Source of the DNA: Gammaproteobacteria bacterium
GTDB lineage: Bacteria; Pseudomonadota; Gammaproteobacteria; Eutrophobiales; Eutrophobiaceae
Assembly (NCBI GenBank): GCA_028279365.1
Contig: JANQNX010000016.1
Coordinates: 82,017 to 146,016 of the forward strand
DNA: 64,000 nucleotides
Direction of reading: 5' to 3'
Part shown: piece after piece, positions 5,809 to 51,413 of the stretch
How the letters are laid out: each line of letters begins with the position of its first letter
Numbering within the stretch: the stretch's first letter is position 1
Translations under genes and position numbers: made by a program
The notes under the pieces: generated by a model
Database searches by the model: none
Told to the model about the DNA's origin: nothing
What the model saw: only the letters and a program-made list of their open reading frames with translations

Positions 5809-6683
5809 TGCTTCATAAACACTTACCACTTATTTGCCTGCTAGTTAGTTTTCATACTAACGCTGAGGAGATTGAAGTCAGGAATGAATGCCAACGTATC
5901 GGTAATAAACTCGGCAGCGTCAGCGTTAGCGATTGCTTGAATATCGGCCTGTCGACCAGTGATGGCTATTCAACCCAACAGGCACCAATACTGATTAAAG
6001 AATACCCGCCACTCAGCCGTCGCAGTCCGCTTGGTAAAGTTTTATTGATCGGTGGTATTCATGGTGACGAATACTCCTCTGTTAGTATTGTGTTTAAGTG
6101 GATGCGTACATTAAACACCTATCATTCAGGTTTGTTCCACTGGCACATCGTACCGCTCCTCAATCCTGATGGTCTGTTACGGAGAAAGTCGCAACGCGTC
6201 AATGCAAACGAGGTTGATTTAAATCGCAACTTCCCAATGGAAGACTGGGAAAATACCGCGTTAAAGCATTGGAAAAACTATACCGGTAGCAATCCACGTT
6301 ATTACCCCGGCGAAGCGCCGCTCAGTGAAAATGAATCAAGCTGGCTGGTAAAACATATCGACGAATTTCAACCGGACGTGATTGTTGCTGTTCATGCGCC
6401 GCATGGTGTGATTGACTATGACGGCCCCCGAAACGGGCCTTACAAACTGGGCCGATTGTACCTGAACCTGCTTGGTACTTATCCCGGTTCGTTAGGAAAC
6501 TATGCCGGCATCCAACGACAAATTCCGGTCGTCACGATTGAACTACCTTATGCTGGCATTATGCCGACCAACGACGAAATCAACAGTATCTGGCGAGATA
6601 TGGTCAGATGGTTAAGTGAAAATATTACCGAAGAGGCGTACAACCAGTCTCACGACATCGATCAGGACGCGGCACCCTCATAA
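5808..6683 (+). CDS. Secreted M14-family zinc carboxypeptidase (MpaA / murein-peptide amidase-like)
   Basis: Signal peptide. GGIHGDEYSS (HxxE zinc ligand), NANEVDLNRNFP motif, downstream HAPHG. Start overlaps ubiA stop (ATAATG). Confidence 0.7.
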   Translation: MLHKHLPLICLLVSFHTNAEEIEVRNECQRIGNKLGSVSVSDCLNIGLSTSDGYSTQQAPILIKEYPPLSRRSPLGKVLLIGGIHGDEYSSVSIVFKWMRTLNTYHSGLFHWHIVPLLNPDGLLRRKSQRVNANEVDLNRNFPMEDWENTALKHWKNYTGSNPRYYPGEAPLSENESSWLVKHIDEFQPDVIVAVHAPHGVIDYDGPRNGPYKLGRLYLNLLGTYPGSLGNYAGIQRQIPVVTIELPYAGIMPTNDEINSIWRDMVRWLSENITEEAYNQSHDIDQDAAPS

Positions 6684-7885
6684 ATAATCCGCCACTGACC
6701 GTCGTCTTCCAGCCGCCAATACTGGCGCTTGGTAAACCGTCTTTTAAAGTTATCGCTTTTATAATCCTGCACGAAGGTCACTACCATTAATTGCTCCTGT
6801 TCACCGGGATACAAAAACATACTGGTGTCAGACAATTCTACCTTAATGAACTTCTTGGATGGATTAACGCGCTTTTTATATTTCACCCAGGACTCATAAT
6901 CTTTACCGAGTCCGGAGTAGTCTGTTGAGTAGTGACTGAGATAACGTGTTACGTCTTTGCTTTCCCAGTCTTTACGCCATTGTTCAACATAGATTTCCAA
7001 CGCATGCTGACGTTTTTTCCAGTCAGCAACGCTAATCCAGTCGATTGATTCGGTAATAATCACCGGTGTTTCACCGTGATGAATAAACGGCGCTAGCGTA
7101 TTCAGATCGTTGTTACTAACAATGACACAGCCATTACTATCACGCGGCGGACGACTGAATGTACTACTTGGCGTACCGTGTAACCAGATGCCATAGCCAG
7201 TGCGCCCATGTCGCCTGTCCCAGGTATTAGGATAATTGATAGGAAAGGCACCATCACCATACAAGTCGGGTAATTCTTCCGGCTGGATAAAACCGGTAAC
7301 AAAATAGACGCCTACCGGGGTTTTTTGATCGCCCTCAACAAATTTGCGCGTTCCGTTTTTACCAATCGTGACATAAAAGTCCTGAATCAGTTTTGGCACT
7401 CCCTGCTGGTTCTTAAACAGAAACAGTCTCGAACGCGATGAGTCGACAACAATCACATGGTCTTGTTTGTTATCGAGTTGAACCAGTGATGCTGGCACCT
7501 TGCTTTTATCAACCGAGGAACGATGAAAATTCCAGCGCGCCTGAACTTCATCCCGCAACTGACTAATGGTTTCAAAAGAGGCATTGGGGATGTTGCCAAA
7601 ATCAGTGATCGCTTGTGATTTTGCCAATAGCATATCGGCATACATTAGCTGCGCTGCCTTAAAATCCGGGTTCGCAGTGACAAGCTTTCTGAGATCTTGC
7701 ATTGCCGCAACCGTATTATCTTTACTGATATGATCGAGGGCACTGATCAGCAGTCCTTCTGAATAATTGGAAAGGCCCTGTTTTGAGGTCGCTTTAGAGA
7801 GTAGGTCAGCCGCCTGAGCGCTTTGGATGGTCAGGTAAAAAATAAATGAAACGAGAAATAATGCGTGCTTTGAACTCATTTTCAA
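6662..7885 (-). CDS. Secreted L,D-transpeptidase (YkuD domain) with N-terminal TPR-like region and C-terminal NTF2-like domain
   Basis: Signal peptide. YkuD catalytic motif LHGTPSSTFSRPPRDSNGCVIV with the conserved His, Gly and Cys. C-terminal domain is homologous to the C-terminus of the adjacent TPR protein. Confidence 0.75.
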   Translation of the reverse strand: MKMSSKHALFLVSFIFYLTIQSAQAADLLSKATSKQGLSNYSEGLLISALDHISKDNTVAAMQDLRKLVTANPDFKAAQLMYADMLLAKSQAITDFGNIPNASFETISQLRDEVQARWNFHRSSVDKSKVPASLVQLDNKQDHVIVVDSSRSRLFLFKNQQGVPKLIQDFYVTIGKNGTRKFVEGDQKTPVGVYFVTGFIQPEELPDLYGDGAFPINYPNTWDRRHGRTGYGIWLHGTPSSTFSRPPRDSNGCVIVSNNDLNTLAPFIHHGETPVIITESIDWISVADWKKRQHALEIYVEQWRKDWESKDVTRYLSHYSTDYSGLGKDYESWVKYKKRVNPSKKFIKVELSDTSMFLYPGEQEQLMVVTFVQDYKSDNFKRRFTKRQYWRLEDDGQWRIIYEGAAS

Positions 7886-7909: not shown

Positions 7910-8947
7910 TTATCGTACTCTTTCCTGTGTAATCAACCATTTATCATCGACTTTTCGCATCAACAGCTCTTTTCTTACCTGATCGCCATAGGTATTGGAT
8001 TGATAACGCTGGTTAAAACGAACTTCGGCATATTCGCTGCCGTGAATATTAATCTTGATATTGGATAAGGTGATTTTGATATAAGCCGGTTTTTTTAAAC
8101 GCACTTGCCTATCCACTTCCCAGGCCTCGCGACTGAGGTTTTTAGGCGGGATAAACTCCCGTGCATAAAAACTTAAGTAGCCAGCTACATCCTGCGCGGA
8201 CCATGCATTCGCCCAATCATTGACAGTATCCTCGACAGCTTGACGTGTGTTGGCCAATTCATCCTCTGCTGCACTGGCCCCAGGTGCGGCTTCAGCATCA
8301 GCCTTGGCGACAGGGGGCTCAGTCTTTGGTTTTTCTTTTGCCGGGATAACGATCAATTCAGGCTCTGTGACTACAACCGGCTTTTTTTGTTGAACGGGTT
8401 TGGGTGTTTCCACTGCCACCGGTGCAGATTGCGGCTGTGGTTCTGAAATAAGTTCATTCACTAACGATAACTTTGCCCTTGCAGTCGTATTACCGGTATC
8501 GAGTTCCAGCGCCTGGTTGTAAGCACGGCTGGCCATTTTCGCGTAGATATCACCTAGATTTTCATGTGCAGTGGCATAACTGGGATGAGTATTAATGGCA
8601 CTCTTTAAGGCATCTTCTGCCTGGTTATATTTACCTTGTGCTGCATAAACGACAGCGAGGTTGTTATACGGCTCAGGTAATTCAGGGTTGTCTTTGGTTA
8701 GCTGTACGAACACCTGCTCCGCATCACCCAGGCGATCCATACGTGTCAGGATTAACCCTTTAATGAAATTTAATTTAATATCAGACTGTTCACGACTAAT
8801 ACCCTCGTCAGCCAGTTTCAAGGCTTCGTTCAGTTTGTTTTGTTTTACCAGCGACTGAATATCACTATATATGTCAGCGCTGGCATGATTCGATATGAAC
8901 AGTAGAGAGCACAAGAATATCGTATGTAGAATTTTATTCAGCATCAT
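7910..8947 (-). CDS. Secreted TPR-repeat protein with Pro-rich linker and NTF2-like C-terminal domain
   Basis: Signal peptide, about 3 TPR repeats, a PKPVQQKKPVVVTEPE linker, and a C-terminal domain alignable with the C-terminus of the 6662..7885 product (W..W..DV..YLS.Y ... IK..LS ... W.I). Confidence 0.6.
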   Translation of the reverse strand: MMLNKILHTIFLCSLLFISNHASADIYSDIQSLVKQNKLNEALKLADEGISREQSDIKLNFIKGLILTRMDRLGDAEQVFVQLTKDNPELPEPYNNLAVVYAAQGKYNQAEDALKSAINTHPSYATAHENLGDIYAKMASRAYNQALELDTGNTTARAKLSLVNELISEPQPQSAPVAVETPKPVQQKKPVVVTEPELIVIPAKEKPKTEPPVAKADAEAAPGASAAEDELANTRQAVEDTVNDWANAWSAQDVAGYLSFYAREFIPPKNLSREAWEVDRQVRLKKPAYIKITLSNIKINIHGSEYAEVRFNQRYQSNTYGDQVRKELLMRKVDDKWLITQERVR

Positions 8948-10725: not shown

Positions 10726-11702
10726 ATCCCCACCATGACGCTCACCTCACCTGACAGGTAGCGCTTTATTTCACCCTGATGCTCAATCAACAGTCGGCCT
10801 TGCTCATCGATGCCTTGTAAGTTGCCTGTAATACTTGAATCTGGTAATTGCAGCGTCGCCTTTTTCCCGTGACAACAATCATAATTACGCCATTCATCCA
10901 GCATTGCCGTTGTATCAGCCGCCGTTGTCATCGACAAGGCTTCAATTAACTGGTTAATCAACATGGCAATGATCACATTACGCGACAAGCGGGTTTCAGT
11001 CTGTTGACAAATATCAGTGATCGGCTGTGCAACGTTTTCTGCAATATTATCTGACATGTCATAGTTTAAACCGATACCAATTACCATCGATAACGGCCCA
11101 CCTGCTTCACCTTTCATCTCCAGCAATACACCACCCAGTTTTTTTCCATCTACCAGAATATCATTTGGCCATTTCAATCCGGCATCGGTAATACCGATTT
11201 CATGCAGGGTTCTGATAATCGCAACACCGGTCACCAGTGACATGATGCTGGTAAAATTGTTTGCGACTTCGACCTTCCAGCTCATCGAAAGATAAATACC
11301 ACTGGCAACAGGTGACAACCAGCTATTGTTTCTTCTGCCTTTGCCTTCGTTTTGATACTCTGCAAGTAACACAATGACGTTTGAGGCATCATGCGTTAAT
11401 ACGCGTGACAGTTCATCATTGGTTGAACCTGTTTCAAATAATATGTTTATTTCACAAGCCTGTGCTTTCGCATGTGAACCCAATAAGTCTTTAATCTGTT
11501 TTTGATCCAGTAATTCAATCTTTTTTTGTAATTGATAACCGCGACCATGTTTGGCATCAATAACCAGTCCCATTTGTTCTATCTTCTTTATCGATTTATT
11601 GATGGCAACACGCGTGACACCCAACTGTTGGGCAAGGGTTTCTCCCGAATGACACTCAGCATCACTCAGGATAGCCAGTAATTGTAAGATTTTTTGCTTC
11701 AT
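10722..11702 (-). CDS. birA: Bifunctional biotin-[acetyl-CoA-carboxylase] ligase / bio operon repressor
   Basis: N-terminal wHTH (SGETLAQQLGVTRVAINKSIKKIE), BPL catalytic core (GKGRRNNSW), and C-terminal SH3-like domain. Confidence 0.85.
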   Translation of the reverse strand: MKQKILQLLAILSDAECHSGETLAQQLGVTRVAINKSIKKIEQMGLVIDAKHGRGYQLQKKIELLDQKQIKDLLGSHAKAQACEINILFETGSTNDELSRVLTHDASNVIVLLAEYQNEGKGRRNNSWLSPVASGIYLSMSWKVEVANNFTSIMSLVTGVAIIRTLHEIGITDAGLKWPNDILVDGKKLGGVLLEMKGEAGGPLSMVIGIGLNYDMSDNIAENVAQPITDICQQTETRLSRNVIIAMLINQLIEALSMTTAADTTAMLDEWRNYDCCHGKKATLQLPDSSITGNLQGIDEQGRLLIEHQGEIKRYLSGEVSVMVGI

Positions 11703-11747
11703 GACATGCAGCCTGAGGCAGGCAACAGTTGCTTAGTGATCGATAGT

Positions 11748-11765
11748 AGACATTAATTAATGTCT
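11748..11765. repeat. Perfect 18-bp palindrome AGACATTAATTAATGTCT between the VWA-FHA gene and birA
   Basis: Read directly in sequence: 9+9 perfect inverted repeat, AT-rich, no downstream U-tract. Confidence 0.6.
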
Positions 11766-11777
11766 GGCGCTGCTGTA

Positions 11778-13574
11778 TCAGATATCTTCTTTGCGAAGGG
11801 TAACATCATCGTCAACGCCACCATCACCGGAAATATCATCGTCCAGCATGATGGTCTCATCTTCTGAATCCGCATCGTCATCTTCTTCCAGGACAAAGTC
11901 GGGCTCTGCGTCAGTCGTATCATTGTCAGGCAGCTCACGAATCACCGTATCTTCCTCATCCGGGTCCGGTTCATACAAGTCAGACAAATCACCATCCGGT
12001 TCAGTAGGGCCGGTTAAGTCAAAATCCATATCTGCTGCAGCGGCCTGTTTGATCTCATCATCATTCAGCTCATTATCACCGCCACGTAACTGTGTTGCTT
12101 CTTCAGATTCATCTGCTCCGGGCTGGGCGGCAAAGACGGTATTGGATATCACTGTCATACCGCTGTCTTCCATTTCCGGCATGATGAAATCAAACTCACA
12201 ACGATGTAGCCTGATTTTGTCACCATGCTTCAAACGCACTTCGGTTTTTACCGGTTCCTCATTCACGAATGTTCCGTTGATACTTCCCTGATCAATAATC
12301 CAGAATGAATAATCCTTGTATTCAATCAAGGCGTGTCGACGACCGATAGTTGATTCATTCACAACGATATAATCCAGATGCTCCGTGTCCTGTCCTGCGA
12401 CCCGACCAAACATGGTGGGTTTTTTGCCCAGCTTATGTGTTTGTTTATCGGTCTTACCGGTTAAGTCATTAATATAGGCTTCCTGGATGACTTGTTGTTC
12501 ACCTGCCTTTAATTCTTTACTACGACGTATCAGTAATATCAGGATGCCCAACAATGTCAGTGTCAGGATGATCGCAGCGGCAATGATAATCATCGAACGA
12601 ATGCGTTCTTCCTCGCCCATCGTTTGCGCCGGAACTTCAATGATCACTGGGGCCGGAGGCGGTTGCACAACAGGCGCCGGTGCCTCAATGATCACCTGTT
12701 TAATCGGTGCAGGGGCGACTTCAGGTTCAGGTGGTGTGATTAAAATGTCATTAATTTGTTTAAACACACTCTGAATTTTCTCGGCTTTCAGGGCACGATA
12801 ATATTCACCATTGGTATTTTGCGCTATCGACTGGATTAACTGGAAATCGGCCTGCTCCGTGAATGCAATCGCGAAAATCTTAATGTCATTATCCGCCGCA
12901 TCGGGTGCCAGATCCTCTCGCAGCCATTTTGCTTTTTCCAGATCTTTATTAGCATCACCAGTATCAACAATGCCATCCGTCATAAATATGATCGACTTTT
13001 GTGCGTCCTCGCGGGCATTGGTTTTTAACTCATAAATCGCTCGCTCGATTCCCGCCGGGCTATCGGTAAACAAGCCTTTGTAATTAATATCATTCAGGCT
13101 GTTGAGAATTAATTCACGATTGGCAAACGTGGCATCGGTTAAAGGTACAGGTAAGGAAACCGACTGGTCAAAAATAACAATCCCAACCCGGGTATTCTCG
13201 CTTTGTAAGCTGATGAACTCGCGAACGGCACTGCCAACCAGAAATTTCGGATCGTTCTTTTTCATGCTGCCGGAATTATCCAGCACCAGAAACACATCGT
13301 TGATCACTTCCTCTGCAGCGACGGCTTCCTCTGGTATTACCTCAACCGGGACAACATCCTGTAACGTGGAGGTATCCGTGTCCGGTTCGGACTCGAGTAA
13401 CTCTTCGACCAATGCAGGTTCACTGTCTTCTGCCAGGATCTCGGCTTCGAGTGATTCAATATCATCAGTAAATTGAAAATCGTCTATTTGCTGAGGCGAT
13501 TCATCGACTAATTGACCCGCAAAACTGCTGGAAAATGAGGCAATAAGGGCGAGATATAGCAGTTTTTTCAGCAT
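11778..13574 (-). CDS. Bitopic membrane protein: signal peptide, periplasmic VWA domain, single TM helix, cytoplasmic FHA domain, poly-acidic termini
   Basis: VWA with MIDAS-type DNSGS (DVFLVLDNSGSMKKND ... IIFMTDGIVDTGD). PAPV repeats then TM helix MIIIAAAIILTLTLLGILILLI. FHA domain (GRVAGQDTEHLDYIVVNESTIGRRHALIEY ... GSINGTFVNEEPV). Asp/Glu-rich tails. Confidence 0.7.
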   Translation of the reverse strand: MLKKLLYLALIASFSSSFAGQLVDESPQQIDDFQFTDDIESLEAEILAEDSEPALVEELLESEPDTDTSTLQDVVPVEVIPEEAVAAEEVINDVFLVLDNSGSMKKNDPKFLVGSAVREFISLQSENTRVGIVIFDQSVSLPVPLTDATFANRELILNSLNDINYKGLFTDSPAGIERAIYELKTNAREDAQKSIIFMTDGIVDTGDANKDLEKAKWLREDLAPDAADNDIKIFAIAFTEQADFQLIQSIAQNTNGEYYRALKAEKIQSVFKQINDILITPPEPEVAPAPIKQVIIEAPAPVVQPPPAPVIIEVPAQTMGEEERIRSMIIIAAAIILTLTLLGILILLIRRSKELKAGEQQVIQEAYINDLTGKTDKQTHKLGKKPTMFGRVAGQDTEHLDYIVVNESTIGRRHALIEYKDYSFWIIDQGSINGTFVNEEPVKTEVRLKHGDKIRLHRCEFDFIMPEMEDSGMTVISNTVFAAQPGADESEEATQLRGGDNELNDDEIKQAAAADMDFDLTGPTEPDGDLSDLYEPDPDEEDTVIRELPDNDTTDAEPDFVLEEDDDADSEDETIMLDDDISGDGGVDDDVTLRKEDI

Positions 13575-38028: not shown

Positions 38029-39159
38029 ATGACAACACATGTACTGTTAACTTTGGGGCGCATGCCGAAAGGGCTAGACCTTGCTCGCGGCTTCGCCGCA
38101 GCAGGTTGTGACGTCTATGTCGCCGATCCGCATGCGAATCATATTTCGCGCTATTCCAATTCCGTAAAAGAATGCTTCACCGTAACAGCACCGAATGACT
38201 CGGCAGATGATTTCGTAGATGACTTACTTAATATTGTTAAAGACAAGGCGATTGATATCGTCGTGCCTATTTCAGAAGAATCGGTTTACACCGCCAAACT
38301 AAAAGTCAGGCTACCAGAACACGTCATATTTTTCGGACCCGGTTTTGATGTCGCGCGTCGACTGCACGATAAATATGAATTTAATCGTTATTTAGTAGAG
38401 TTAAATTTACCGGCGCCGGAAACTGCATTATTAGGCACCGATGAAGCCAATGAACTGGTGCAGCAACACGATGTTATCGTCAAACCCATTCACGCTTCAG
38501 CCGGCATCGATATCATCACCGTAAATCAAGGTGATAGTTTACCCTCAGCGACCAACCGCCCTTCTCTTGTGCAACAACAATTACGTGGCAGATTGTTAAC
38601 CAGTTTATCGGTGGCAAAAGATGGACAGTGTTTACAGACCGGCATCTACGAAGGGCGTATCTTCACCGGTAGCGTTGCCATTGCCTTTGAACGTGTTAAT
38701 GATGCTGAAGTCGTTCAAGAGTTTGCGAAACGGTTTATTGAAGATAGTCATTACACCGGATTTATTTCATTCGATGTGTTTATTGAAAATGATAACAACG
38801 CCTATGCGATTGAATGTAATCCAAGGCTTACCAGCGGCATTCATTTATTTAATACAACGGATGTTGCCAGGGCCATTATGAGTGAGGCAGTGCATCCAGA
38901 AATCGCTTTACGTGAAAGGCTCTCTTTTCAACACTTTTGGCCAGCCTTAGGGACAACAGAGATGTCATTAATCAAAGGAGGTCCGTTTAAACATAACCTG
39001 AAGCACTTTTTAAAAAGCTCAGATGTGACCTGGTCTCGACACGATATCAAACCCTTTTTAATGATGAATTTTTGTTCTGGCGAGATTTTAAAAAAATATT
39101 TCTTTGACAAGATGTCACTGGGTGAAGCAAGTATTACCGATATCGAATGGCGCGAATAA
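38029..39159 (+). CDS. ATP-grasp family carboxylate-amine ligase (unknown substrate)
   Basis: ATP-grasp fold features: Rossmann-like N-terminus, central KPxxxSAG-type region, and C-terminal E-C-N-P-R metal/ATP motif (AIECNPRLTSGIHLF). Confidence 0.6.
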   Translation: MTTHVLLTLGRMPKGLDLARGFAAAGCDVYVADPHANHISRYSNSVKECFTVTAPNDSADDFVDDLLNIVKDKAIDIVVPISEESVYTAKLKVRLPEHVIFFGPGFDVARRLHDKYEFNRYLVELNLPAPETALLGTDEANELVQQHDVIVKPIHASAGIDIITVNQGDSLPSATNRPSLVQQQLRGRLLTSLSVAKDGQCLQTGIYEGRIFTGSVAIAFERVNDAEVVQEFAKRFIEDSHYTGFISFDVFIENDNNAYAIECNPRLTSGIHLFNTTDVARAIMSEAVHPEIALRERLSFQHFWPALGTTEMSLIKGGPFKHNLKHFLKSSDVTWSRHDIKPFLMMNFCSGEILKKYFFDKMSLGEASITDIEWRE

Positions 39160-40539
39160 TTACTGACGTTTTTTCACTCGACATTGAATCTCATGCTTGG
39201 GTCGCGTTGTGAGTCTGGCAACCGGCTTCACTTTTTCTTTATCGAACAATTCAAAATCAAACGCACGAACAATTGACGCGAGGATTAAGGTACTTTCAAT
39301 CTGTGCGAACGTCGCACCGGCGCAGACTCTCGGGCCTTGTCCGAAGGGAATATAGCTTCCTCTGACTATGTTTCCCTCTCGTTCCTGACTAAAACGATCC
39401 GGATCAAACAGTTCCGGTTCATCCCAAAGTTTTCTATGCCGATGAATCGCCCACGGTGCAATCATAATCATCGCGCCGCGTTTAATCTTCTGTTTCCCTA
39501 TCTTGCAACTCTCGGCAGCGACTCTGGGGATAAACGTTAGCGGCGGATACAACCGTAAGGTTTCGCGAAACACATTACGCGTATAAGGCAACTTTTTAAT
39601 ATCATCAAAGCCAATCTTGTTTTCGCCAACAGCCTGATCCACTTCATCGCGAATGCGCTGTGCCACCTCCGGTCTTGATGCAATAATAAAAAACGCCCAG
39701 GTTAAGACACTAGCCGTCGTCTCATGCCCAGCGAGAAAAAACACGCCTAACTGATCGATCAATTCATCCCGGGTAAACCCTTCACCGGTGTTTTCATCGC
39801 GCGCATCGACAACGGCGCGAGCCAGGCCATCTGCCGCTGCTTCATTAACAATCGATTCATCAATTAATACGCCCAGCTGTTCGCGAATACGTTTACATGC
39901 TGCCAACACTTCATCGGTTTGTTTGATATCGCTCCAGGCCTTACCAAATATCAATTGCGATAGCTTGACGTTAGACACACTGCGCTCAAATAAAGAGAAA
40001 CTTTCAAAGACATCCATCGCTACGTCGGATTCCAATGATTTGGAAAACATCGTGCGACAGATAATATCGGCCGTCAGATGGCTCATAGAAAAATCCAGCG
40101 AGAAGGTTTCACCTGATTCACTACGTTTTGTCAGCGTGTCTTGAAACTGATCGACTGCAGCCTGCATAGCATGAAAGGCATTCCCCAAACGGATAAAGGA
40201 AAACGCCGGTTCCACCATCTTGCGTTGGCGCTGCCAGGTTTCACCATCAGACACAAATAAAGAATCCCCGACCAACGGCGCCAACGCGCCTTTCATCAAA
40301 TCATTCTTTGGAAAAATATCAATCGCATCCGTCATCACATGGCGCGTGTATTCCGGTTTATTGACAATAATGATCGAGCGACGTGAATAGCCGAGCGTGC
40401 CGATATCGACTTCATAGGCGTCCTTCGGTAGCAGGCTCAGCAAATCGCCTTCACCACTGGCAATACTGCGCACCAATCCCATTAGTGGTGATAGTGGTTT
40501 CGGGCAAGGCGGCCGGAATAATGACTCAGCTGCGTTCAA
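39160..40539 (-). CDS. Cytochrome P450 monooxygenase
   Basis: Heme-ligand loop FGQGPRVCAGATFA. I-helix AGHETT. K-helix ETLRLYPP (ExxR). Confidence 0.9.
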   Translation of the reverse strand: MNAAESLFRPPCPKPLSPLMGLVRSIASGEGDLLSLLPKDAYEVDIGTLGYSRRSIIIVNKPEYTRHVMTDAIDIFPKNDLMKGALAPLVGDSLFVSDGETWQRQRKMVEPAFSFIRLGNAFHAMQAAVDQFQDTLTKRSESGETFSLDFSMSHLTADIICRTMFSKSLESDVAMDVFESFSLFERSVSNVKLSQLIFGKAWSDIKQTDEVLAACKRIREQLGVLIDESIVNEAAADGLARAVVDARDENTGEGFTRDELIDQLGVFFLAGHETTASVLTWAFFIIASRPEVAQRIRDEVDQAVGENKIGFDDIKKLPYTRNVFRETLRLYPPLTFIPRVAAESCKIGKQKIKRGAMIMIAPWAIHRHRKLWDEPELFDPDRFSQEREGNIVRGSYIPFGQGPRVCAGATFAQIESTLILASIVRAFDFELFDKEKVKPVARLTTRPKHEIQCRVKKRQ

Positions 40540-40599
40540 CTTAGCTCCTGATTATTTTTATCTTAAGGTCTGTACACTCAGCCATAACTTAGCAATACT

Positions 40600-41331
40600 T
40601 TGACTATGTTCATAGTGCACGCGTTTGAGACTCTTGTCATGATGCATATCGTGACGGGCAGTGTCGGCCTTGTGAGTTTATGGATACCGCTGCTGACTAA
40701 AAAAGGGAATAAACTGCATAAAAAAAGCGGCCTGATCTTTGTTTATTCCATGCTGGCAACCGGTACGATTGCAACCGGTATCAGTACCTGTACTCTACTC
40801 GCACCCGTGGACACGCATCCACATTTACTCAATCACCCTGACTTTGGTGATGGGCAAACAATCAGAGTGATCTTCGGCTGGATGATGCTATATCTCGCCT
40901 TCCTGACAATCAACCTCGCCTGGTATGGCTGGCGTTGCGTAACAACGAAAAACGATAGAAAAGCCAACCGCCGATGGGAGCAGAATATCTCTCAAGTCAT
41001 ACTATTAATACTGTCACTCAATGCCATGTACCATGGCTTGGTGAATGATGTGTTGCTGGTCGCCGGGATTTCCTTTGTCGGTATTGCCACCGTCGCGACG
41101 AACTTATGGTTTCTCTATAAACCTAAAGCCAAACCTATCGACTGGTTATTGGAACATATTAAAGGATTAGTCGGCGCAGGGATTTCAGTCTACACGGCCT
41201 TTCTTGCATTTGGTGCAGTCAGATTATTACCGGAAGCGGCATTAACACCTTTTCTTTGGTCAATACCTTTAATTACAGGATTAACAATAATTATTTACCA
41301 GCAATATCAAGTAAAACGTAAAACTGCATAA
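40600..41331 (+). CDS. Polytopic membrane protein (6 predicted TM, unknown function)
   Basis: Hydrophobic segments throughout. Divergent from the P450 gene with a 60-bp gap. Confidence 0.45.
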   Translation: MTMFIVHAFETLVMMHIVTGSVGLVSLWIPLLTKKGNKLHKKSGLIFVYSMLATGTIATGISTCTLLAPVDTHPHLLNHPDFGDGQTIRVIFGWMMLYLAFLTINLAWYGWRCVTTKNDRKANRRWEQNISQVILLILSLNAMYHGLVNDVLLVAGISFVGIATVATNLWFLYKPKAKPIDWLLEHIKGLVGAGISVYTAFLAFGAVRLLPEAALTPFLWSIPLITGLTIIIYQQYQVKRKTA

Positions 41332-41373
41332 TATTATGTAAATAGTACTTATATTTTCCAAAAAAATTAGTAA

Positions 41374-43665
41374 ATGGCCGACTACGATTTTAAAGCATTA
41401 TCATTTTGGGAATTCGAGCAAATTTCAAGGGATTTGCTTAGAAATGCGTTAAATATTGATTTTGAATCATTCAAGTCAGGTAAAGATCAAGGCATAGATC
41501 TTAGACATGCATCTGACAATAAAGGGGAAATCATAGCTCAATGCAAACATTATGCTAATTCAACTTATTCGGATCTTAAAAATACAATTAAGAAAGAAAA
41601 AGTTAAAATAGATAAATTAAAACCCAATAGATACATACTAATAACATCGTTAGGTCTGACGACAAAAAACAAAGAAGAAATAAAGTCAATATTAGGTAAA
41701 CACCTTATCTATACAAAAGATATCGTTACAAGAGAGACTCTAAATGGTTGGCTTGTTGATTTTCCGAAAATTGAAAGATCATATATAAAATTATGGGCTA
41801 CTACTGGAGTAGCTTTAAATCAGATTATAAAAAGTCGAATATTCAATTATTCTCTCTCTCAAATTGAAGAATTAGAAACAAAAATTAAGTACTTTGTAAA
41901 AAATCAATCGTTCGACGAATCAATCAAAATATTACAAGCTCAAAAGTTTTGTATTATTGCTGGCATACCCGGAATAGGAAAAACAACATTAGCTGAAATG
42001 CTATTAGTAGATTTTTTACGTCGAGATTTTGAGCCAATAGTAATCACTAGTGATATTGAAGATGCATTTGACGTCTTCGATAAGGATGCAAAGAGAATAT
42101 ATTATTATGACGATTTTCTTGGTCAGACTGGTCTGGAACAAAAATTAAATAAAAACGAAGATGCCAGAATCGTAGAGTTCTGCAAGCTATGTAGAAAAAC
42201 AAAAAACTCTTATTTCATACTAACAACAAGAGAATATATTTTAAATCAGGCAAAGGCCACATATGAGAAACTGGAAAAATCAGGAATAGATAAAAGAAAA
42301 TGTGTGATTGATCTGAAAAGCTATAGTGATCTTGAAAAAAGCAAAGTTCTTTATAATCACATTTACCATAGAAAACTACCTGACAAATATAAAAAAGCTC
42401 TTTTAAAAGATCATGGATATTTAAAAATAATTGATCATAAATCTTTTAATCCTAGAGTCATAGAATGGATGGTAGATTCTGAAATGATTTCAGATATTCC
42501 GCCCGAAGATTACCTAGACAGCTTTATTTATAGATTAAACAATCCTTCTGCAATCTGGTCACATGCATTTAACAATCAAATATCTGACCATGCGAGACAC
42601 TTAGTTATGAGCTTGCTTACGTGTTCTAGATTTGCTTATTTGAGTGATTGTAAAAAGGTGTTTGAGAATTTACGGCATTATTTATCTAATAAGTACAATT
42701 TCGGAATGACTGCAAATGAATTTAATACTGCTTTAAAAGAAGTCGAAGGAAACTTTATTAGCGTAAGTTTAGTAAACAATCAGCAAATCATACATTTCCA
42801 TAACCCTTCTATCATCGATTATGTGTCATATTATTTATCTGAAAATACTGAAATAGTACAAGATATTATTTCTTCGTTTACTCACTTTGATCAATTCATT
42901 AATTTATGGAATATATTTACAAATTTTGAAAAAAACCCATTGCTGCATGAAGATGTTAAAGACATATTTATGTCTTGTTTAGCTAAACATTATGGTACTG
43001 ATGGAATCAATCTTACAAGATATAACAATATTATCGGCAAACCAATTTACGCATATTCATCTTCAAGCATTGAGATCCAAGTCATTATTGCATTGAATCT
43101 TGAACTAGATAACTACAATCACTCTTTTATTCAAAATACAAAAGAAATAGTTGACGATTATTTTACTAACATGGGTATAGAAGTAATTTGGTCACGAGTG
43201 AAGCAATTATTAATTGATCTGGAAAATAAAAAAGAAGAACTGCAACTAAACATAGACAACTATCTTATAAAGTCCGTCAATTTACTATCAGAAAACTTAA
43301 CTCAAATAAATGATTACAAACAGTTAGCAGATATATCTAAAATATCAAATGTAACAAAAGATATTATTGATGAAAAAATACAAATGATTGAACAAGATTT
43401 AATTGCTGGGTTTGAAGATGAAGTCGAATTCCATAGAAATGATAATGATGTAAGTGAATTACAAGATTGTCTTAGTGATATAGAAGATATTGAAATTATA
43501 TTTGATTTTAATTTATATGAACAGAAAGAATATATAGAAACTATTCTTAATGAATTAGGCGATCCAGATGAAATTTATAATGATGAATACAGTAATATAT
43601 CAACTAAATCTAGCACAAACACTAACACTTCTGAGATTATAGATATATTTAATACGCTAGAGTAA
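41374..43665 (+). CDS. Mrr-like PD-(D/E)xK nuclease domain fused to STAND/NACHT-like P-loop NTPase (candidate antiphage protein)
   Basis: N-terminus FEQISRDLLRNALNIDFESFKSGKDQGIDLRHAS ... IIAQCKHY parallels the Mrr catalytic core (GDGGIDL ... QCKRY). Walker A IIAGIPGIGKTT and Walker B IYYYDDFLG. C-terminal helical/repeat region of about 360 aa. Confidence 0.65.
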   Translation: MADYDFKALSFWEFEQISRDLLRNALNIDFESFKSGKDQGIDLRHASDNKGEIIAQCKHYANSTYSDLKNTIKKEKVKIDKLKPNRYILITSLGLTTKNKEEIKSILGKHLIYTKDIVTRETLNGWLVDFPKIERSYIKLWATTGVALNQIIKSRIFNYSLSQIEELETKIKYFVKNQSFDESIKILQAQKFCIIAGIPGIGKTTLAEMLLVDFLRRDFEPIVITSDIEDAFDVFDKDAKRIYYYDDFLGQTGLEQKLNKNEDARIVEFCKLCRKTKNSYFILTTREYILNQAKATYEKLEKSGIDKRKCVIDLKSYSDLEKSKVLYNHIYHRKLPDKYKKALLKDHGYLKIIDHKSFNPRVIEWMVDSEMISDIPPEDYLDSFIYRLNNPSAIWSHAFNNQISDHARHLVMSLLTCSRFAYLSDCKKVFENLRHYLSNKYNFGMTANEFNTALKEVEGNFISVSLVNNQQIIHFHNPSIIDYVSYYLSENTEIVQDIISSFTHFDQFINLWNIFTNFEKNPLLHEDVKDIFMSCLAKHYGTDGINLTRYNNIIGKPIYAYSSSSIEIQVIIALNLELDNYNHSFIQNTKEIVDDYFTNMGIEVIWSRVKQLLIDLENKKEELQLNIDNYLIKSVNLLSENLTQINDYKQLADISKISNVTKDIIDEKIQMIEQDLIAGFEDEVEFHRNDNDVSELQDCLSDIEDIEIIFDFNLYEQKEYIETILNELGDPDEIYNDEYSNISTKSSTNTNTSEIIDIFNTLE

Positions 43666-43909
43666 AGATTTTCATTACCATATTAGCTAATAACTTCTAC
43701 CTCTTTCTCATTTAGCCCCAGTAAGCAGTGTAGCTCATTCGCAAAACCGAGACCCGCTTCGGCATGGATATTAAATATGCTCTACGCCCATCTCTCGTAA
43801 ATCCCCTTTTTAATAAAACCAAAAGGATCAGTATCGATTGAAAAGCAGTTCATTTGATCAAATTGGGAATTTAATTTTTAATCAACGTGTAGCTATCTAT
43901 AGAAAACCA

Positions 43910-44278
43910 TCACTGCCACTGACTAGCATCATTACATCTTGGATCGGATATTATTTTTTTAGATAATGATGCTTCATAAGCGAGGCCAGCGCATTGACCA
44001 ACCTTTGTTCCCCATAGTGTGCCGTCTTTCGGCTGTATCATGACATCAGGGATTTGTTCTTCAACCTCCTTTAAACATATCCGTGTTGCTGATGCGGCGG
44101 CTTCTTCGCATTCAACGGCAGTCACATCAAAACACTGCCTGAAATATTGTTCGGAATTGCAAAACGCGGCGGGTAGTGCGCTCTTCATCCCGGTAATCCA
44201 ATCCTCTTTTTTCACTTCCTGAGAATGAACAGTGATAGAAAACAAAACTAATAAAAATAAGACGATATTTTTCATCAT
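43910..44278 (-). CDS. Small secreted Cys-rich protein (6 Cys) of unknown function
   Basis: Signal peptide MMKNIVLFLLVLFSITVHSQ plus six cysteines in about 100 aa. Confidence 0.4.
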   Translation of the reverse strand: MMKNIVLFLLVLFSITVHSQEVKKEDWITGMKSALPAAFCNSEQYFRQCFDVTAVECEEAAASATRICLKEVEEQIPDVMIQPKDGTLWGTKVGQCAGLAYEASLSKKIISDPRCNDASQWQ

Positions 44279-44326
44279 AGCGAATCCTTCATATTAAGAG
44301 TTATAGTTTAGGAACAGCTCGTTTTG

Positions 44327-45382
44327 TTATTCTCTGACCTTTGGTTCACCTGTCTCAGCATCAATCCTGTCAAGAGATGGTCCCTCATATTGAGCTAAAA
44401 TTAAATCTACAACAGCTTCGCCGTATTTAGCAAACCAGAAGTCCCCCATCTGTTTTAGTTTTTTAATATTTGACTGACTAATATCATCCATGGCGTCATC
44501 AGGTGGATTAGGTAAGCCAGGCTGTTTTTTCATTTCAGTATTAACACGAATATAATTGCCTTGCTTTAAAAGGGTATACGCTTGATAGGCGACAACTCTT
44601 TCATCTGTTAACAAGTCAAGTATATGACCTTTTGTAAACCATTCTAAAGCGCCCCATTTTTGTGACTCTGGACCATTTATTTTTCTGGTGCGATATCCCG
44701 TTCCCACAGACAATACGCGTAAATCCTGAATGTGTTCAGTTGACCAAATCTTGATGGCTTAGGCAATTACACACATTGTAGGATTATTAGCTGTCACCCC
44801 TCCATCCACCAGCCAAAATGCACTCTCAATATTTTTCATTGCTAATTCTTTGGTGGGGAAATAGGTTGGTGCAGCACTGGACGCATCTGCTACCTGCCAA
44901 GACTGTAACTTGCGATGTGTCTTATCGGTTGATTTAATAACGACAGGTTTTCGGCGTTCTATTCCATAGGTTACAACCAAAACATGTTTGTTGTTTGCTA
45001 CATTGCTTAACTTTGCTGAACCCAGTTTCTGTTCCAGTAATTTTGACTTTCCTTTTGCTTCATATTTTGGCGCATTGATACCATCCCATTCAAACCAGCC
45101 TCTATTATCGGAAAATATTTTTTTTGCATTTTGATAGTTATATAGCTTATTAATATCCGCCATCGCCATATCAGTCGTAGCTAATGCAAGCGCGATAATA
45201 CTTCCCGTACTGGTTCCTGCATAAAAATGCACACAATCGCGTAAACTTTTATTATGGTCAGTTTTAAGCTTGTTCTCAACATGAGTAAGAAACTGGGTCG
45301 TAGCAGCTCCGCGTATACCACCGCCATCCAATGAAAGAATTAATTTTGACATATTACCTCCTTGTTTAAATAATCTTAGCAA
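44327..45382 (-). pseudogene. Patatin-like phospholipase interrupted by one in-frame TAA (44759-44761)
   Basis: Upstream part carries the oxyanion hole DGGGIRG, the nucleophile GTSTG and the catalytic DGG. Translation through the stop continues in frame (...PTMCVIA*AIKIWSTEHIQDLRVLSVGTGYR...) into the conserved patatin C-terminus (SVGTG). Both ORFs share frame (starts 45382 and 44713, both 1 mod 3). Confidence 0.7.
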
Positions 45383-45589
45383 TAAGATTTTAAGTGATCG
45401 CCATAATATAACATTGCATAATCAATTTATGGCTTTTCACTAACAGATTAATACTAACTGGTTATAAATCAACTAAATCATCATCGAACTGATGTAAAGT
45501 AATGCCAGTTATATAAACAGAAATTCGGGTTTTTAAATTATGTGCAGTATTAAAATGAGTAAAAATCTTTGCACTATACATAAAAGCAT

Positions 45590-47095
45590 TTACAGAAATA
45601 CATCAGGATCGGGTGCAACTTCATCCAGTATCTTCGCTGATGAAATCACGCCGGGTACGCCGGCACCGGGATGTGTACCGGCACCCACCAAAAACAGATT
45701 TTCCAGTTCTTCGCTTTTATTATGTGGTCGAAACCAGGCGCTTTGTAATAGCTGCGGCTCCAGACCAAACGCGGCACCATTAACCGATAACAAGCGCGTT
45801 TCAAAATCCTTGGGTGTCATGACGAATGATGTGGTCAGATGTTTGCCTAGCTCGGGCAAAACAGTTTGTTCTAATCTCTCTTCAATCGCCTTACGATAGG
45901 TTTCGCTATGCACCTCCCAATCGACGCCGCTTTCCAGATGTGGCACTGGTGATAATACATAAAACGCATCATGCCCTTCCGGCGCCAGACTTTTATCCGT
46001 CGCCGTGGGACGATGTAGATATAAACTAAAATCTTCTGCGAGATGTTTATGTTTAAAGATATCTTTTAATAAGCCTTCATATCTCGGACCAAGCAGGATT
46101 AAGTGGTGGTACACATCGTCATATTGTTTGTCAGTTCCAAAATACCAGACGAATAAACTCATGGAGTAACGCGCACGTTTCAGTTTTTTGGGTTTCCAGC
46201 GTTTTGCCATTCGATTACCAAGTAGATGTTTATAGGTCCAGGCCGAATCGGCATTGGATACAACAATATCCGCGTCTATTTGTTCACCATCTTTCAATTT
46301 TACACCGGTCGCACGGTCCCCTTCATGCGTAATGCACTTCACTTCTGAGTTATATCTAATCTTGCCGCCCAAACCGTCAATCAATCCAACCATGCCTTTT
46401 ACCAAGGACCCCATGCCACCCATGGCATAGTGCACACCAAACTTACGTTCAAGATGCGCAATCAGGCAATAGTAAGCCGTCGTCGTCATCGGATTACCGC
46501 CAATCAATAATGGATGAAAACTAAACACGATTCGTAAAGCCGGATCGGTAAAATAATCACACACAGTTTTAAATACCGTACGATGTCCACCCAGTCTTAC
46601 CAAATCCGGCGCGGTACTTAGAGTAAACGGCAAGCTATGAAACGGTTGCGCGGCCAATTCTTCAAACGCGACTTCGTAAATATCACCACTAAGTTTGATA
46701 AAACGATTGAACCCATCCAGATCGTCGGGGTTAAACTTACAGACTTCTTCGCGCATTTTTTCGATATCGCCGCTATAACTAAACACGCGACCATCATCAA
46801 ACCGAATTTGATAAAACGGCTCCATAGGTATCAACTCGACATCGTCCGAGACTTTCTTGCCGCAGAGTTCCCACAGTTCATCAAACACAAACGGCGCCGT
46901 GACAATCGTTGGGCCGCGATCGAAGATATAACCGTCACGTTCTTCGACAAAGGCGCGACCGCCCGGCGCTTCCAGTCTTTCAATCACGGTGACAGCATAA
47001 CCTCTGGCGCCAAGTCGAATCGCTGCGGCCAAACCGCCAAAGCCGCTACCTATGATGACAGCATGGGCTTTGTTTTTAGAACTTTCATTTCCCAT
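45590..47095 (-). CDS. crtI: Phytoene desaturase
   Basis: N-terminal FAD fold AVIIGSGFGGLAAAIRL ... PGGRAFV and C-terminal CrtI-family signature (GAGTHPGAGVPGV). Confidence 0.88.
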   Translation of the reverse strand: MGNESSKNKAHAVIIGSGFGGLAAAIRLGARGYAVTVIERLEAPGGRAFVEERDGYIFDRGPTIVTAPFVFDELWELCGKKVSDDVELIPMEPFYQIRFDDGRVFSYSGDIEKMREEVCKFNPDDLDGFNRFIKLSGDIYEVAFEELAAQPFHSLPFTLSTAPDLVRLGGHRTVFKTVCDYFTDPALRIVFSFHPLLIGGNPMTTTAYYCLIAHLERKFGVHYAMGGMGSLVKGMVGLIDGLGGKIRYNSEVKCITHEGDRATGVKLKDGEQIDADIVVSNADSAWTYKHLLGNRMAKRWKPKKLKRARYSMSLFVWYFGTDKQYDDVYHHLILLGPRYEGLLKDIFKHKHLAEDFSLYLHRPTATDKSLAPEGHDAFYVLSPVPHLESGVDWEVHSETYRKAIEERLEQTVLPELGKHLTTSFVMTPKDFETRLLSVNGAAFGLEPQLLQSAWFRPHNKSEELENLFLVGAGTHPGAGVPGVISSAKILDEVAPDPDVFL

Positions 47096-47173: not shown

Positions 47174-48463
47174 TTATTCAAGATGTTTTACACTCTCTCT
47201 GATACGTCTAATGCCAAATGCAACCGCAATCGCAACTAACGGAATACTCGCTGCTGTGATTATGTAGCCTTTCTCAAGTAACCCGGCACCTTCTGCACCT
47301 TTTGTTAAATAACTGACTAGACCAACAATATAATAAGTAATGGCGGCGATAGATAATCCTTCAACTGTTGTTTGAAGACGAAGCTGTAATTCAGCACGCC
47401 GATTCATTGAGTGCAATACTTTTTGATTTTGTTCACGTCGGGTCATTTCAACGCGAGTTGATAATAATTGTGTTGCTCGAGCCACCCGGGTTGATAAAGA
47501 TTCCTGGCGGTTTGCGACCATTCGGCAGGTGTCTATCGCTGGAACCAGGCGTCGTTCTGTAAACTCACCAAAGGTCTGCAAGCCTCTTATACGTTGTTCG
47601 CGTAATTCCTGGATTCGTCTCTCGACCAACGAGTAATAAGCGTTGGCAGCGCTAAACCGATAGTGATGTTGCGAGTGATGGCTTTCTATCTCTGCTTGTA
47701 GACTGGTTAACCTCTCAAGCAGATTTGACTCTTTTTCTCCTGATTGCGTTAAAGCATGAGTAATCTCAGCCAATTCCTGTTCGCTTTCGTTGACATGAGG
47801 CGATAGTGTTCGTGTCAATGGCAAGGTCAATAAAGCCAGCATACGATAAGTGTCAACCTCGAGTAATCGCTGGATCATTCTGCCCGCCTGTCTGGCTTTC
47901 ATACCGTGGTCTGCCACCCACAAGCGACCAAAACCATTTTCATGAATTTTAAAATCGGTTAAGGCAGTCGCCACACCGCCGTCAATGGCCGACCCTACCA
48001 GCACATTACCGTTAAATCGTTTTTTTGAGAGGCTTTCATAGTCATTTGGTGGGTTTTGTCGACGTACCAATGCCACATTTGTGGCCACCAGTATTCTACC
48101 GGGTAAAGCACTAAGCCAGTCCGGTTCAAGTTGATTAATAATGGGGGAAACAAAGGCATCATCACCAGTCATCGGACTGATAAATAGATAGCGTGTAAAT
48201 TCAGTATGGCGCTCCCACTTCAATCTGAAACTGCCAAAATCTGCACTATGATGTTTAATCTTTAAATGGGGTAGTTTTTGATCGTACTTCTCGGCCAACA
48301 TGGCGACAGGTTCAATATCTTTGATAGATAAATCCCAATCCGTATGCAACGCAATATAGGAAAGTTTTAACGGTGCTTGTAGTGGTTCAGAAGGTCTGGC
48401 ATGTACCTCATTATTTAATTCCAAACGCAGTTCATGATCAGTAGGTAAAGCAATTATCGACAT
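47174..48463 (-). CDS. Conserved hypothetical protein with C-terminal 2-TM anchor (DUF3422-like?), between bchO and crtI
   Basis: ORF with a soluble domain of about 330 aa followed by two hydrophobic helices. Family name uncertain. Confidence 0.4.
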   Translation of the reverse strand: MSIIALPTDHELRLELNNEVHARPSEPLQAPLKLSYIALHTDWDLSIKDIEPVAMLAEKYDQKLPHLKIKHHSADFGSFRLKWERHTEFTRYLFISPMTGDDAFVSPIINQLEPDWLSALPGRILVATNVALVRRQNPPNDYESLSKKRFNGNVLVGSAIDGGVATALTDFKIHENGFGRLWVADHGMKARQAGRMIQRLLEVDTYRMLALLTLPLTRTLSPHVNESEQELAEITHALTQSGEKESNLLERLTSLQAEIESHHSQHHYRFSAANAYYSLVERRIQELREQRIRGLQTFGEFTERRLVPAIDTCRMVANRQESLSTRVARATQLLSTRVEMTRREQNQKVLHSMNRRAELQLRLQTTVEGLSIAAITYYIVGLVSYLTKGAEGAGLLEKGYIITAASIPLVAIAVAFGIRRIRESVKHLE

Positions 48464-49604: not shown

Positions 49605-51413
49605 TCAGGATGCCAACGCCATCGATTGTTTACTTGACGTATGCGCCAATACCGCTTCAGACAAGTTTTGCGAATTTGCATGCGGCATCGCCAGATATTG
49701 CGCGCCCATTTGTTCGGCAACCTGTTGATTAAACGGTTGCTTACGCGGTGAGGTGTCAATTAACAAACTGGATACATTTTCCATACGCACTTCTTTTGCT
49801 GCTAACAAGGCATCAGTTTCGGCTGTGCTTCTGTCAGCTTCACCCTCTCGATTAATATTAGTTCGACCATCGGTTAATAAAATAATAGTCGGTGTTTCGC
49901 CCTGCTGCTTGATTTGTTGCGCTAATAACAATGCCGCATCAATACCGGATGCTAAGGGTGTTGCGCCACCGCCGGGCAAGCCGGCCAGACTGCGTTTGGC
50001 TCTGACCAGCGATCGCGTTGGCGGCAACAATACCTCAGCCTGCTTTCCGCGAAAGGCAATTAACGCGACCTGATCACGCCGTTGGTAACACTCTGCGAGT
50101 AATAACTCGACCGCACCTTTTGCTTCAGCTAATCGATTTAATGCGGATGAACCGGATGCGTCGACGACAAAGATAGTCGTAGTGACCGTGCGTTGTTTAA
50201 AACGGGCAATACGAAAATCTTCTCGCTGGATATCAATACGCCTGCTATCGCTATTCGTTGTAGAAACATTGTTTCTAATGCGCTGCCAGGGTGCGGCAGC
50301 TCTCAATGTTTCCAGTACATTCAAGCGCGCGCCGTTACCAGGCTCACCTTTTCTCACACCGACTGGCCTACCTCTGACGTCACTGTATTTCAGATTACTG
50401 GAACGGCCTGACTGACTCTTTTGATTGTTCTTGCTTGCAGTACTCTGTAATTTCTCTAACAGTTGCTTTGATAATACCGCTTGCGTTGCTTCAATTAATA
50501 GCTCTTCCAAAGACTGTGGATCGAATTGTTGTTGTTCATTATTCTGTTGCTGTTGGTCTTGTTCAGATTCATTCTGCTCCGGTGTTTGTTCCGGTTGTTG
50601 AGCCTCGGCTTCTTCTTCTATTTCGGCTGGAAGATATAAGGCACGATGTGCATACACCAGTCGACAGGCAAGTAAGGCATTATCTTTACTGACTGTTTGA
50701 TTGCCTTCCAATGCCGCTAGCGCGCGCGCGACGTTTCTGGCTAATAACGGCGCACGTAAAGAGGTGATACCAAAACCCATCGCTGCTGCGCACAGTAACT
50801 CCAGCATATCGTTAGTGATACTGACTGCAGGCAAACATTTTCTTGCCTTGTTCACCGCATGTTTACTGAAAGACCAGTGGGTTGATTCCTGATAGCTGAC
50901 ATTTTCCAGTTCCACATGAAAGGCAAAGCGTTCCTGTAATTTGGACGAAGTCGACTCATCTTCATGAATACCTTCATCCAATGCGATAACTGAAAATTGC
51001 GTGGGTGTTTTGTTTGCCAAGCCATCACGCTCAAGCACAACTTCGCCACAATCCAGACAATTGGCAATTGTCGCGGCCGTGCCAATAGGTAATCGTTCAG
51101 CCATGGAAAGAATAATGATACCGCCGTCCGCTTCTGCCAGGATACCTTTCTCCGCAACCGGTTTACCAGCTGTCAATGTCGCAGGTAGGTCTAACCCTCC
51201 GAGTAAACGACAATCTGAAATATTTAATGGCACACGTTTCCAACAAAAGGACTTGCTGAAATAGTCACGACAGCGCCGCATCCACTCATCCCTGACTGGT
51301 CCGGGTTGTGCTCTGAGATTAATACCCTTAATACCTGTTGGATCAATCGCAAATAGGGTAGCGGCTAGCGCGGCATCTTCCCATGACGTCATTTCTGATG
51401 GATTAAGTTTCAT
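49605..51413 (-). CDS. bchD: Magnesium chelatase subunit D
   Basis: AAA-like N-terminus. Acidic/Gln-Pro-rich linker. C-terminal VWA with MIDAS (FVVDASGSSAL). Confidence 0.88.
   Translation of the reverse strand: MKLNPSEMTSWEDAALAATLFAIDPTGIKGINLRAQPGPVRDEWMRRCRDYFSKSFCWKRVPLNISDCRLLGGLDLPATLTAGKPVAEKGILAEADGGIIILSMAERLPIGTAATIANCLDCGEVVLERDGLANKTPTQFSVIALDEGIHEDESTSSKLQERFAFHVELENVSYQESTHWSFSKHAVNKARKCLPAVSITNDMLELLCAAAMGFGITSLRAPLLARNVARALAALEGNQTVSKDNALLACRLVYAHRALYLPAEIEEEAEAQQPEQTPEQNESEQDQQQQNNEQQQFDPQSLEELLIEATQAVLSKQLLEKLQSTASKNNQKSQSGRSSNLKYSDVRGRPVGVRKGEPGNGARLNVLETLRAAAPWQRIRNNVSTTNSDSRRIDIQREDFRIARFKQRTVTTTIFVVDASGSSALNRLAEAKGAVELLLAECYQRRDQVALIAFRGKQAEVLLPPTRSLVRAKRSLAGLPGGGATPLASGIDAALLLAQQIKQQGETPTIILLTDGRTNINREGEADRSTAETDALLAAKEVRMENVSSLLIDTSPRKQPFNQQVAEQMGAQYLAMPHANSQNLSEAVLAHTSSKQSMALAS

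Follow-up and report, generated by a model that had tools for sequence, protein, structure and literature searches.

The window, by which we mean the whole 64-kb stretch of DNA that was analysed, is a photosynthesis gene cluster that comprises bchCXYZ, crtCDEF, crtB, crtI, a bchO-like gene, bchID, puhE, acsF, puhCBA, and bchMLH. An insert within this cluster carries three genes, which encode a patatin-like phospholipase, an NttA-like small secreted protein, and a STAND NTPase (Table 1). The patatin gene is split. The earlier note had reported that two minus-strand open reading frames, 45382-44759 and 44713-44327, lie in the same frame with a single TAA (44761-44759) between them, and the minus-strand sequence between 45600 and 44200 bears this out. 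The two halves match contiguous parts of one protein family. Translation through the TAA therefore gives one continuous patatin, as had been proposed, but its length is 341 amino acids and not the approximately 351 first given, since the biological start is the ATG at 45352, while the TTG at 45382 is only the mechanical start chosen by the ORF finder. This assignment of the start is made because ACAAGGAGGT, with an ATG 3 nt later, is the only upstream feature conserved across 11 homologue loci; the 11 aligned upstream regions have nothing else in common. Counted from this ATG, the premature stop is codon 198. An Rfam E-value scan upstream of the patatin gene found no relevant riboswitch or similar element, and a promoter and terminator scan gave results no better than those for shuffled sequence.

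Table 1. Coordinates (positions in the window) of the split patatin gene, its parts, the insert that holds it, and the genes on either side.
Feature	Position	Strand	Remarks
Conserved 243-aa membrane protein, to the left of the insert	40600-41331	+	76-78% identical to the crtI-adjacent gene in loci L017 and L019
Insert of 4,258 bp with the STAND NTPase, NttA-like, and patatin genes	41332-45589		Between the stop codons of the convergent crtI and membrane-protein genes
STAND NTPase, 763 aa, Mrr_cat nuclease and nSTAND3 domains	41374-43665	+	PADLOC PDC-S73, 3.6e-156, end to end
NttA-like small secreted protein, 122 aa, with signal peptide	43910-44278	-	PF24275, 8.7e-14; 48 bp downstream of the patatin gene
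Probably inactivated patatin-like phospholipase gene of the solo CapV/patatin-like family	44327-45352	-	341 codons plus terminal TAA; PF01734, 84.5 bits
Stranded C-terminal piece of the patatin gene	44327-44758	-	143 codons plus terminal stop; SVGTG strand (44710-44696) and DDAMDD motif
Premature TAA, codon 198	44759-44761	-	Ancestral codon GAA (Glu)
N-terminal fragment of the patatin gene	44762-45352	-	197 codons; holds the oxyanion loop, the nucleophile motif, and the catalytic DGG
Shine-Dalgarno region, ACAAGGAGGT	45356-45365	-	The ATG at 45352-45350 follows after 3 nt
crtI (phytoene desaturase), to the right of the insert	45590-47095	-

All four of the sequence motifs described previously are where they were said to be. 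GGGIRG (codons 10-15, 45325-45308), GTSTG (codons 46-50, 45217-45203, with Ser48), and DGG (codons 183-185, 44806-44798, with Asp183) precede the stop, and SVGTG (codons 215-219) follows it. The first three align to R21, S58, and D192 of AbCapV, respectively. The repaired protein matches the Pfam Patatin model PF01734 over residues 6-193 (E 1.4e-23) with a score that far exceeds the cut-off of 27.7 bits, and a PADLOC phospholipase model spans residues 5-308. In its present state, the gene lacks the uninterrupted reading frame that the complete alpha/beta fold requires, because the TAA at codon 198 removes 144 of the 341 residues.

A search of 5.8 billion proteins yielded thousands of matches, and the best 120 were used for the comparisons that follow. 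These homologues are 62-82% identical to the repaired protein (the nearest one being 82% identical), are 332-358 amino acids long, and are colinear with it across the stop. In the resulting 121-sequence alignment, every one of the 120 homologues has Glu at the stop column and none is split or interrupted there, and the codon at this column is GAA or GAG in each of 9 homologue genes. It follows that one G>T transversion, from GAA to TAA, produced the lesion. The comparison with orthologues that the earlier note proposed thus finds a sense codon throughout, and the opposite pattern, in which all orthologues end at the same place, is not seen, as all 120 run through the stop position. The stop occurs in the window copy alone among the 121 family members, and the 197-residue fragment forms a sequence cluster with a single member. 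An in-frame stop that stands against a sense codon in all homologues, with both flanks derived from one protein, as here, is a mark of a nonsense pseudogene.

At nine sites in the window, open stretches of 100 or more codons lie on both sides of one stop, and the patatin site is the only one at which both sides come from one protein. According to family models, seven of the other eight are ordinary boundaries between unrelated genes, and the eighth (49726-49728, plus strand) lies antisense to bchD. The boundaries checked were those of spoT/ridA/recG, crtD/crtC, puhB/puhC, crtB and a 122-aa ORF, a VWA-FHA protein and a rhodanese, and two complete Cds6_C paralogues. The last of these are adjacent same-frame genes on the minus strand (6662-7885 and 7910-8947), each of which ends in a Cds6_C NTF2-like domain, one having a YkuD L,D-transpeptidase domain and the other TPR repeats; they are tandem paralogues and not a split gene. 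The split pattern in patatin is not due to chance, given that both halves match one family whose 120 homologues are uninterrupted.

The earlier note had suggested a fresh nonsense mutation, and the state of the gene agrees with this. Since synonymous sites are saturated (pS 0.7-1.0), dN/dS is uninformative, and we used pN and counts of deviations at conserved columns instead. The window patatin has no private deviations at any of the 127 columns with conservation of at least 95% (78 ahead of the stop and 49 past it), while intact homologues have on average about one in each part. Its pN to the nearest homologues is approximately 0.12 both before and after the stop, which equals that of pairs of intact genes, so there is no excess of substitutions past the stop. 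The gene has no frameshift and no further stop, and its Shine-Dalgarno sequence is intact. Given this lack of further decay, the stop must be either evolutionarily very recent or an artefact. Reassignment of TAA as a sense codon was considered and ruled out, because TAA is an ordinary terminator in the window, where it ends 30 of the 59 long ORFs, the patatin gene among them, and is the commonest terminator.

We compared the surroundings of the patatin gene with loci L017 and L019, which hold the two closest relatives of the flanking crtI (80% and 79% identical, respectively). In L019, the site is empty, with 14 bp between the convergent stop codons (11522-11535), and in L017 the site (11507-13217) holds a Na+/H+ exchanger gene (TrkA_N). 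Homology to both loci stops at the crtI stop codon on one side, and on the other the membrane protein retains its 76-78% identity to its very end. Relative to these loci, patatin and the STAND NTPase lie in one 4.26-kb insert, so the placement of both genes in the same island holds. The junction between crtI and the membrane-protein gene is thus a hotspot for cargo insertion inside the photosynthesis cluster, with different contents in each of the three relatives. The insert encodes no integrase or transposase, and its edges have no flanking repeats, only short chance matches of low identity. GC3 values of 0.32 (patatin), 0.38 (NttA-like gene), and 0.22 (STAND gene) contrast with 0.42-0.49 for the host genes; in other genomes, the GC content of patatin tracks that of its host. 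We consider it probable that the patatin gene was acquired by horizontal transfer. The STAND gene, being extremely AT-rich (28.8% GC, compared with 39.5% for patatin and 45% for the host), looks like a very recent acquisition of a single defence gene.

The neighbours of patatin within the insert do not appear to be its partners. A functional pair of patatin with either the NttA-like or the STAND gene was rejected, because neither neighbour recurs at any homologue locus; the STAND gene, moreover, is on the opposite strand, has its own Mrr-type nuclease domain, and differs from patatin in composition (29% versus 39.5% GC). Outside the insert, genes for a cytochrome P450, an ATP-grasp enzyme, and a membrane protein (243 aa, multi-pass) lie between crtI and crtB in all three related clusters (38029-41331 in the window, 13218-16511 in L017, and 11536-14867 in L019). 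The order in L017 and L019 is crtI, a membrane protein of 243 or 260 aa, P450, ATP-grasp, and crtB. These genes, which are conserved here but unusual as passengers in the carotenoid section, possibly serve a lineage-specific modification of carotenoids or lipids. A DUF3422 protein is encoded between the bchO-like hydrolase and crtI in the window (47174-48463, minus strand) and in L017 (8689-9981), and is absent from L019, which makes it a further variable part of the cluster.

To see what the truncation removes, we used an AlphaFold (AF2) model of the 82%-identical homologue P0001 (pTM 0.84). In this model, residue 198 falls inside a helix (192-202). The part that follows the stop contains two strands (211-217, which is the SVGTG strand, and 267-270), helices within 223-261 (including 235-261), a long helix (293-318), and a C-terminal hairpin (326-340). 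AbCapV, the cryo-EM structure of which has been reported, has S58 and D192 as its catalytic dyad; its helices alpha9-alpha11, all of which lie past D192, build the pocket for the phospholipid, with the dimer interface provided by alpha10 (PMC12480259). Point mutations past D192 in AbCapV, for example at E207 or R279, abolish activity (PMC12480259). The 197-residue product of the window gene still holds every catalytic motif, which counts against a loss of activity. Nevertheless, since it would lack core strands as well as the helices that make up the lipid pocket and the dimer interface, we expect the truncated patatin to be dead: a protein that retains the Ser48/Asp183 dyad but is shorter by 144 residues is very probably inactive or misfolded.

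To place the stop relative to the ligand contacts of AbCapV, we recovered the AbCapV sequence, numbered as in AbCapV itself, by way of an orthologue on an Acinetobacter pittii plasmid and added it to an alignment of the family. [quoted passage not shown] K149 of AbCapV corresponds to Lys140 of the window protein, and Lys at this position, like Glu at the position of E207, is present in 120 of 120 homologues. The remaining contacts have fared differently in these homologues: Val or Ile stands in place of F147, the loop with D159 is deleted, R279 is variable, and T331 and K332, which also contact the ligand, are not conserved. Thus, two of the five essential cGAMP contacts are kept.

Given that an artefact would leave a gene in just this condition, we asked how far the stop itself can be trusted. 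It might be a sequencing or assembly error, or an allele that is not fixed, in an organism that carries GAA and makes an intact, functional 341-aa patatin. The otherwise flawless gene (Shine-Dalgarno sequence, ATG, conserved columns, and equal pN) looks as it would if only one base were wrong, the distance to the nearest patatin leaves no second genome of the lineage for comparison, and an exact DNA search around the stop found no match in metagenome contigs. However, both NCBI and Logan have records that match the 197-aa N-terminal product and the 128-aa C-terminal ORF exactly, and neither has the repaired 341-aa protein; the weight of these two sources is lessened in that they may stem from the same reads, and one 169-kb contig is on record for the fragments. 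Furthermore, the lesion is a base substitution that lies in non-repetitive sequence, ATTGCCTAAGCC, and not a homopolymer indel, the typical error of error-prone platforms, and among the sites checked in the 64-kb window no other gene has an internal TAA or is otherwise broken. We therefore consider an artefact unlikely and the stop probably real. If it is real, the perfectly kept downstream frame might reflect programmed readthrough or recoding that yields full-length patatin at a low, regulated level, which the earlier note had also raised. TAA is the strongest bacterial terminator. A readthrough site would be expected to have a stop that is conserved among orthologues, yet this one occurs in 1 of 121 sequences, and we found no suppressor tRNA within the window and no Rfam element nearby, so that readthrough finds no support here and is almost certainly not the explanation. 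It is also very unlikely that the gene works in split or truncated form, either as the N-terminal fragment alone or together with a C-terminal piece restarted at TTG 44713 or at a GTG two codons downstream. Such an arrangement would fit the position of all catalytic motifs ahead of the stop, the AGGA located 10 nt upstream of TTG 44713, and the lack of decay in the C-terminal part; but these restart signals are weak and non-canonical, a restart would still lose residues 198-213, none of the 120 homologues is split, and the missing part contributes core strands together with the substrate-pocket and dimer helices.

The other question is whether the gene belonged to a defence system. The earlier note had counted it among abortive-infection or CBASS-type effectors, and the locus might accordingly be a degenerate CBASS remnant, that is, a CapV-type effector whose cyclase has been lost and whose stop represents decay or relief from toxicity. 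In favour of this, the protein matches PADLOC CBASS phospholipase models at 1e-60, cGAMP-activated CapV and CapE are among the nearest solved structures, the mutated Glu corresponds to a cGAMP contact of AbCapV with K149 conserved as well, and a defence-type STAND gene adjoins. Against this, no CD-NTase, Cap2, or Cap3 model matches any gene in the insert, no cyclase is encoded in the 64-kb window, and no CD-NTase, Cap2, or Cap3 is found beside patatin in L001, L002, or L004-L016 (about 14 loci), where the neighbours differ each time; a genuine CBASS locus examined as a control, L020, does show the order capV-dncV-cap2-cap3 (capV-dncV-E2-MPN). The score for the NCBIfam equivalog model NF041079 (CBASS_lipase, a cGAMP-activated phospholipase) is 168.7 bits and falls below the cut-off of 200, and F147, D159, and R279 are not conserved. 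By sequence, the nearest solved structures are the cGAMP-activated lipases 9WN1/9KH7 (5e-23), followed by potato patatin 1OXW (5e-18) and AbCapV 8ZR9 (1.5e-15), and by fold the protein is equally close to potato patatin (Foldseek TM 0.68) and AbCapV (0.65). Gene context weighs most heavily against CBASS, and the ligand contacts are kept in part, so that the family may bind a different ligand. We conclude that this patatin resembles CapV in its fold and chemistry without belonging to a CBASS system, and we give the remnant interpretation hardly any credence. An effector-model match in PADLOC, even a strong one, is not proof of a defence system. There is some room, though not much, for a related idea, namely that the solo family of approximately 340-aa proteins consists of orphan CapV-like lipases that would sense a nucleotide messenger through Lys140 and Glu198 without an adjoining cyclase, and that the stop at a ligand-contact Glu reflects selection to disarm a toxic, signal-triggered lipase after it had landed in the photosynthesis cluster beside a STAND defence gene; we regard this as improbable.

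Taken together, it is quite likely that the locus holds a stand-alone patatin-like lipid acyl hydrolase gene that was acquired horizontally and recently became a pseudogene through one nonsense mutation. Horizontal transfer would have brought in the patatin gene, either together with the NttA-like gene and the STAND NTPase gene or close to them, and the cargo would have landed in the variable spot between crtI and the membrane-protein gene in the photosynthesis cluster of an anoxygenic phototrophic proteobacterium. The G>T transversion would then have turned the codon for the invariant Glu198 into TAA, such that translation from the intact Shine-Dalgarno sequence and ATG would end after 197 residues. 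The predicted product would keep the oxyanion loop, the nucleophile, and the catalytic Asp and would lose two strands, the acyl-chain-pocket and dimer helices, and the C-terminal hairpin; with these, patatin activity has presumably been lost. For annotation, it would be right to join the two ORFs under one pseudogene entry rather than list them as two proteins or as a CBASS effector. The event itself is of little weight, being the loss of one accessory gene through a point mutation. More interesting are two by-products of the analysis: the insertion hotspot beside crtI, and a context-free patatin family that has two of the nucleotide-contact residues of CapV.

The closest known relatives are the members of this solo family of approximately 340-aa patatin-like phospholipases, which occur in marine Gammaproteobacteria and Desulfobacterota (for example, in Halioxenophilus, Microbulbifer, Teredinibacter, Alteromonas, Paraglaciecola, Vibrio campbellii, and V. 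splendidus) and are colinear with the window copy over 341 residues at 62-82% identity. They have in common with it the motifs GGGIRG, GTSTG, DGG, SVGTG, DDAMDD, and GPSLDRI, a strong Shine-Dalgarno sequence, and an occurrence as single genes without fixed neighbours. The window copy differs from them in that it alone has a stop at the invariant Glu198 and in that its GC3 is well below that of its host. The family is widespread and strongly conserved, and its neighbourhood is different in every genome examined (L001, L002, and L004-L016); the V. campbellii copy is on a conjugative element near hok/gef.

Potato patatin Pat17 is a plant storage protein and a lipid acyl hydrolase. It is the best structural match to the window patatin (1OXW/4PK9; TM 0.68, E 9e-17), and its sequence matches over residues 5-306. 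Both proteins have an MDD motif near the C-terminus, but they are only approximately 22% identical, and Pat17 has Val rather than Glu at the position of the stop. The CapV-type lipases, which include AbCapV (8ZR9/9JEH; PMC12480259), the 9KH7/9WN1 lipase, and CapE (9IOM), have the same patatin fold (Foldseek TM 0.60-0.66), the same Ser/Asp dyad, and the same oxyanion-loop Arg, and the residues equivalent to K149 and E207 are kept. Their identity to the window patatin is only approximately 26-30%, and the window gene, unlike theirs, has no adjacent CD-NTase, Cap2, or Cap3. VipD, ExoU, and PlpD, which are secreted effectors of Legionella and Pseudomonas, have the patatin catalytic core in common with the window protein but are much weaker structural matches (TM 0.3-0.5), and the window protein lacks a signal peptide, a secretion domain, and a host-activation domain. 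The gene next to the window patatin encodes a member of the NttA-like family, a family of Legionella T2SS substrates.
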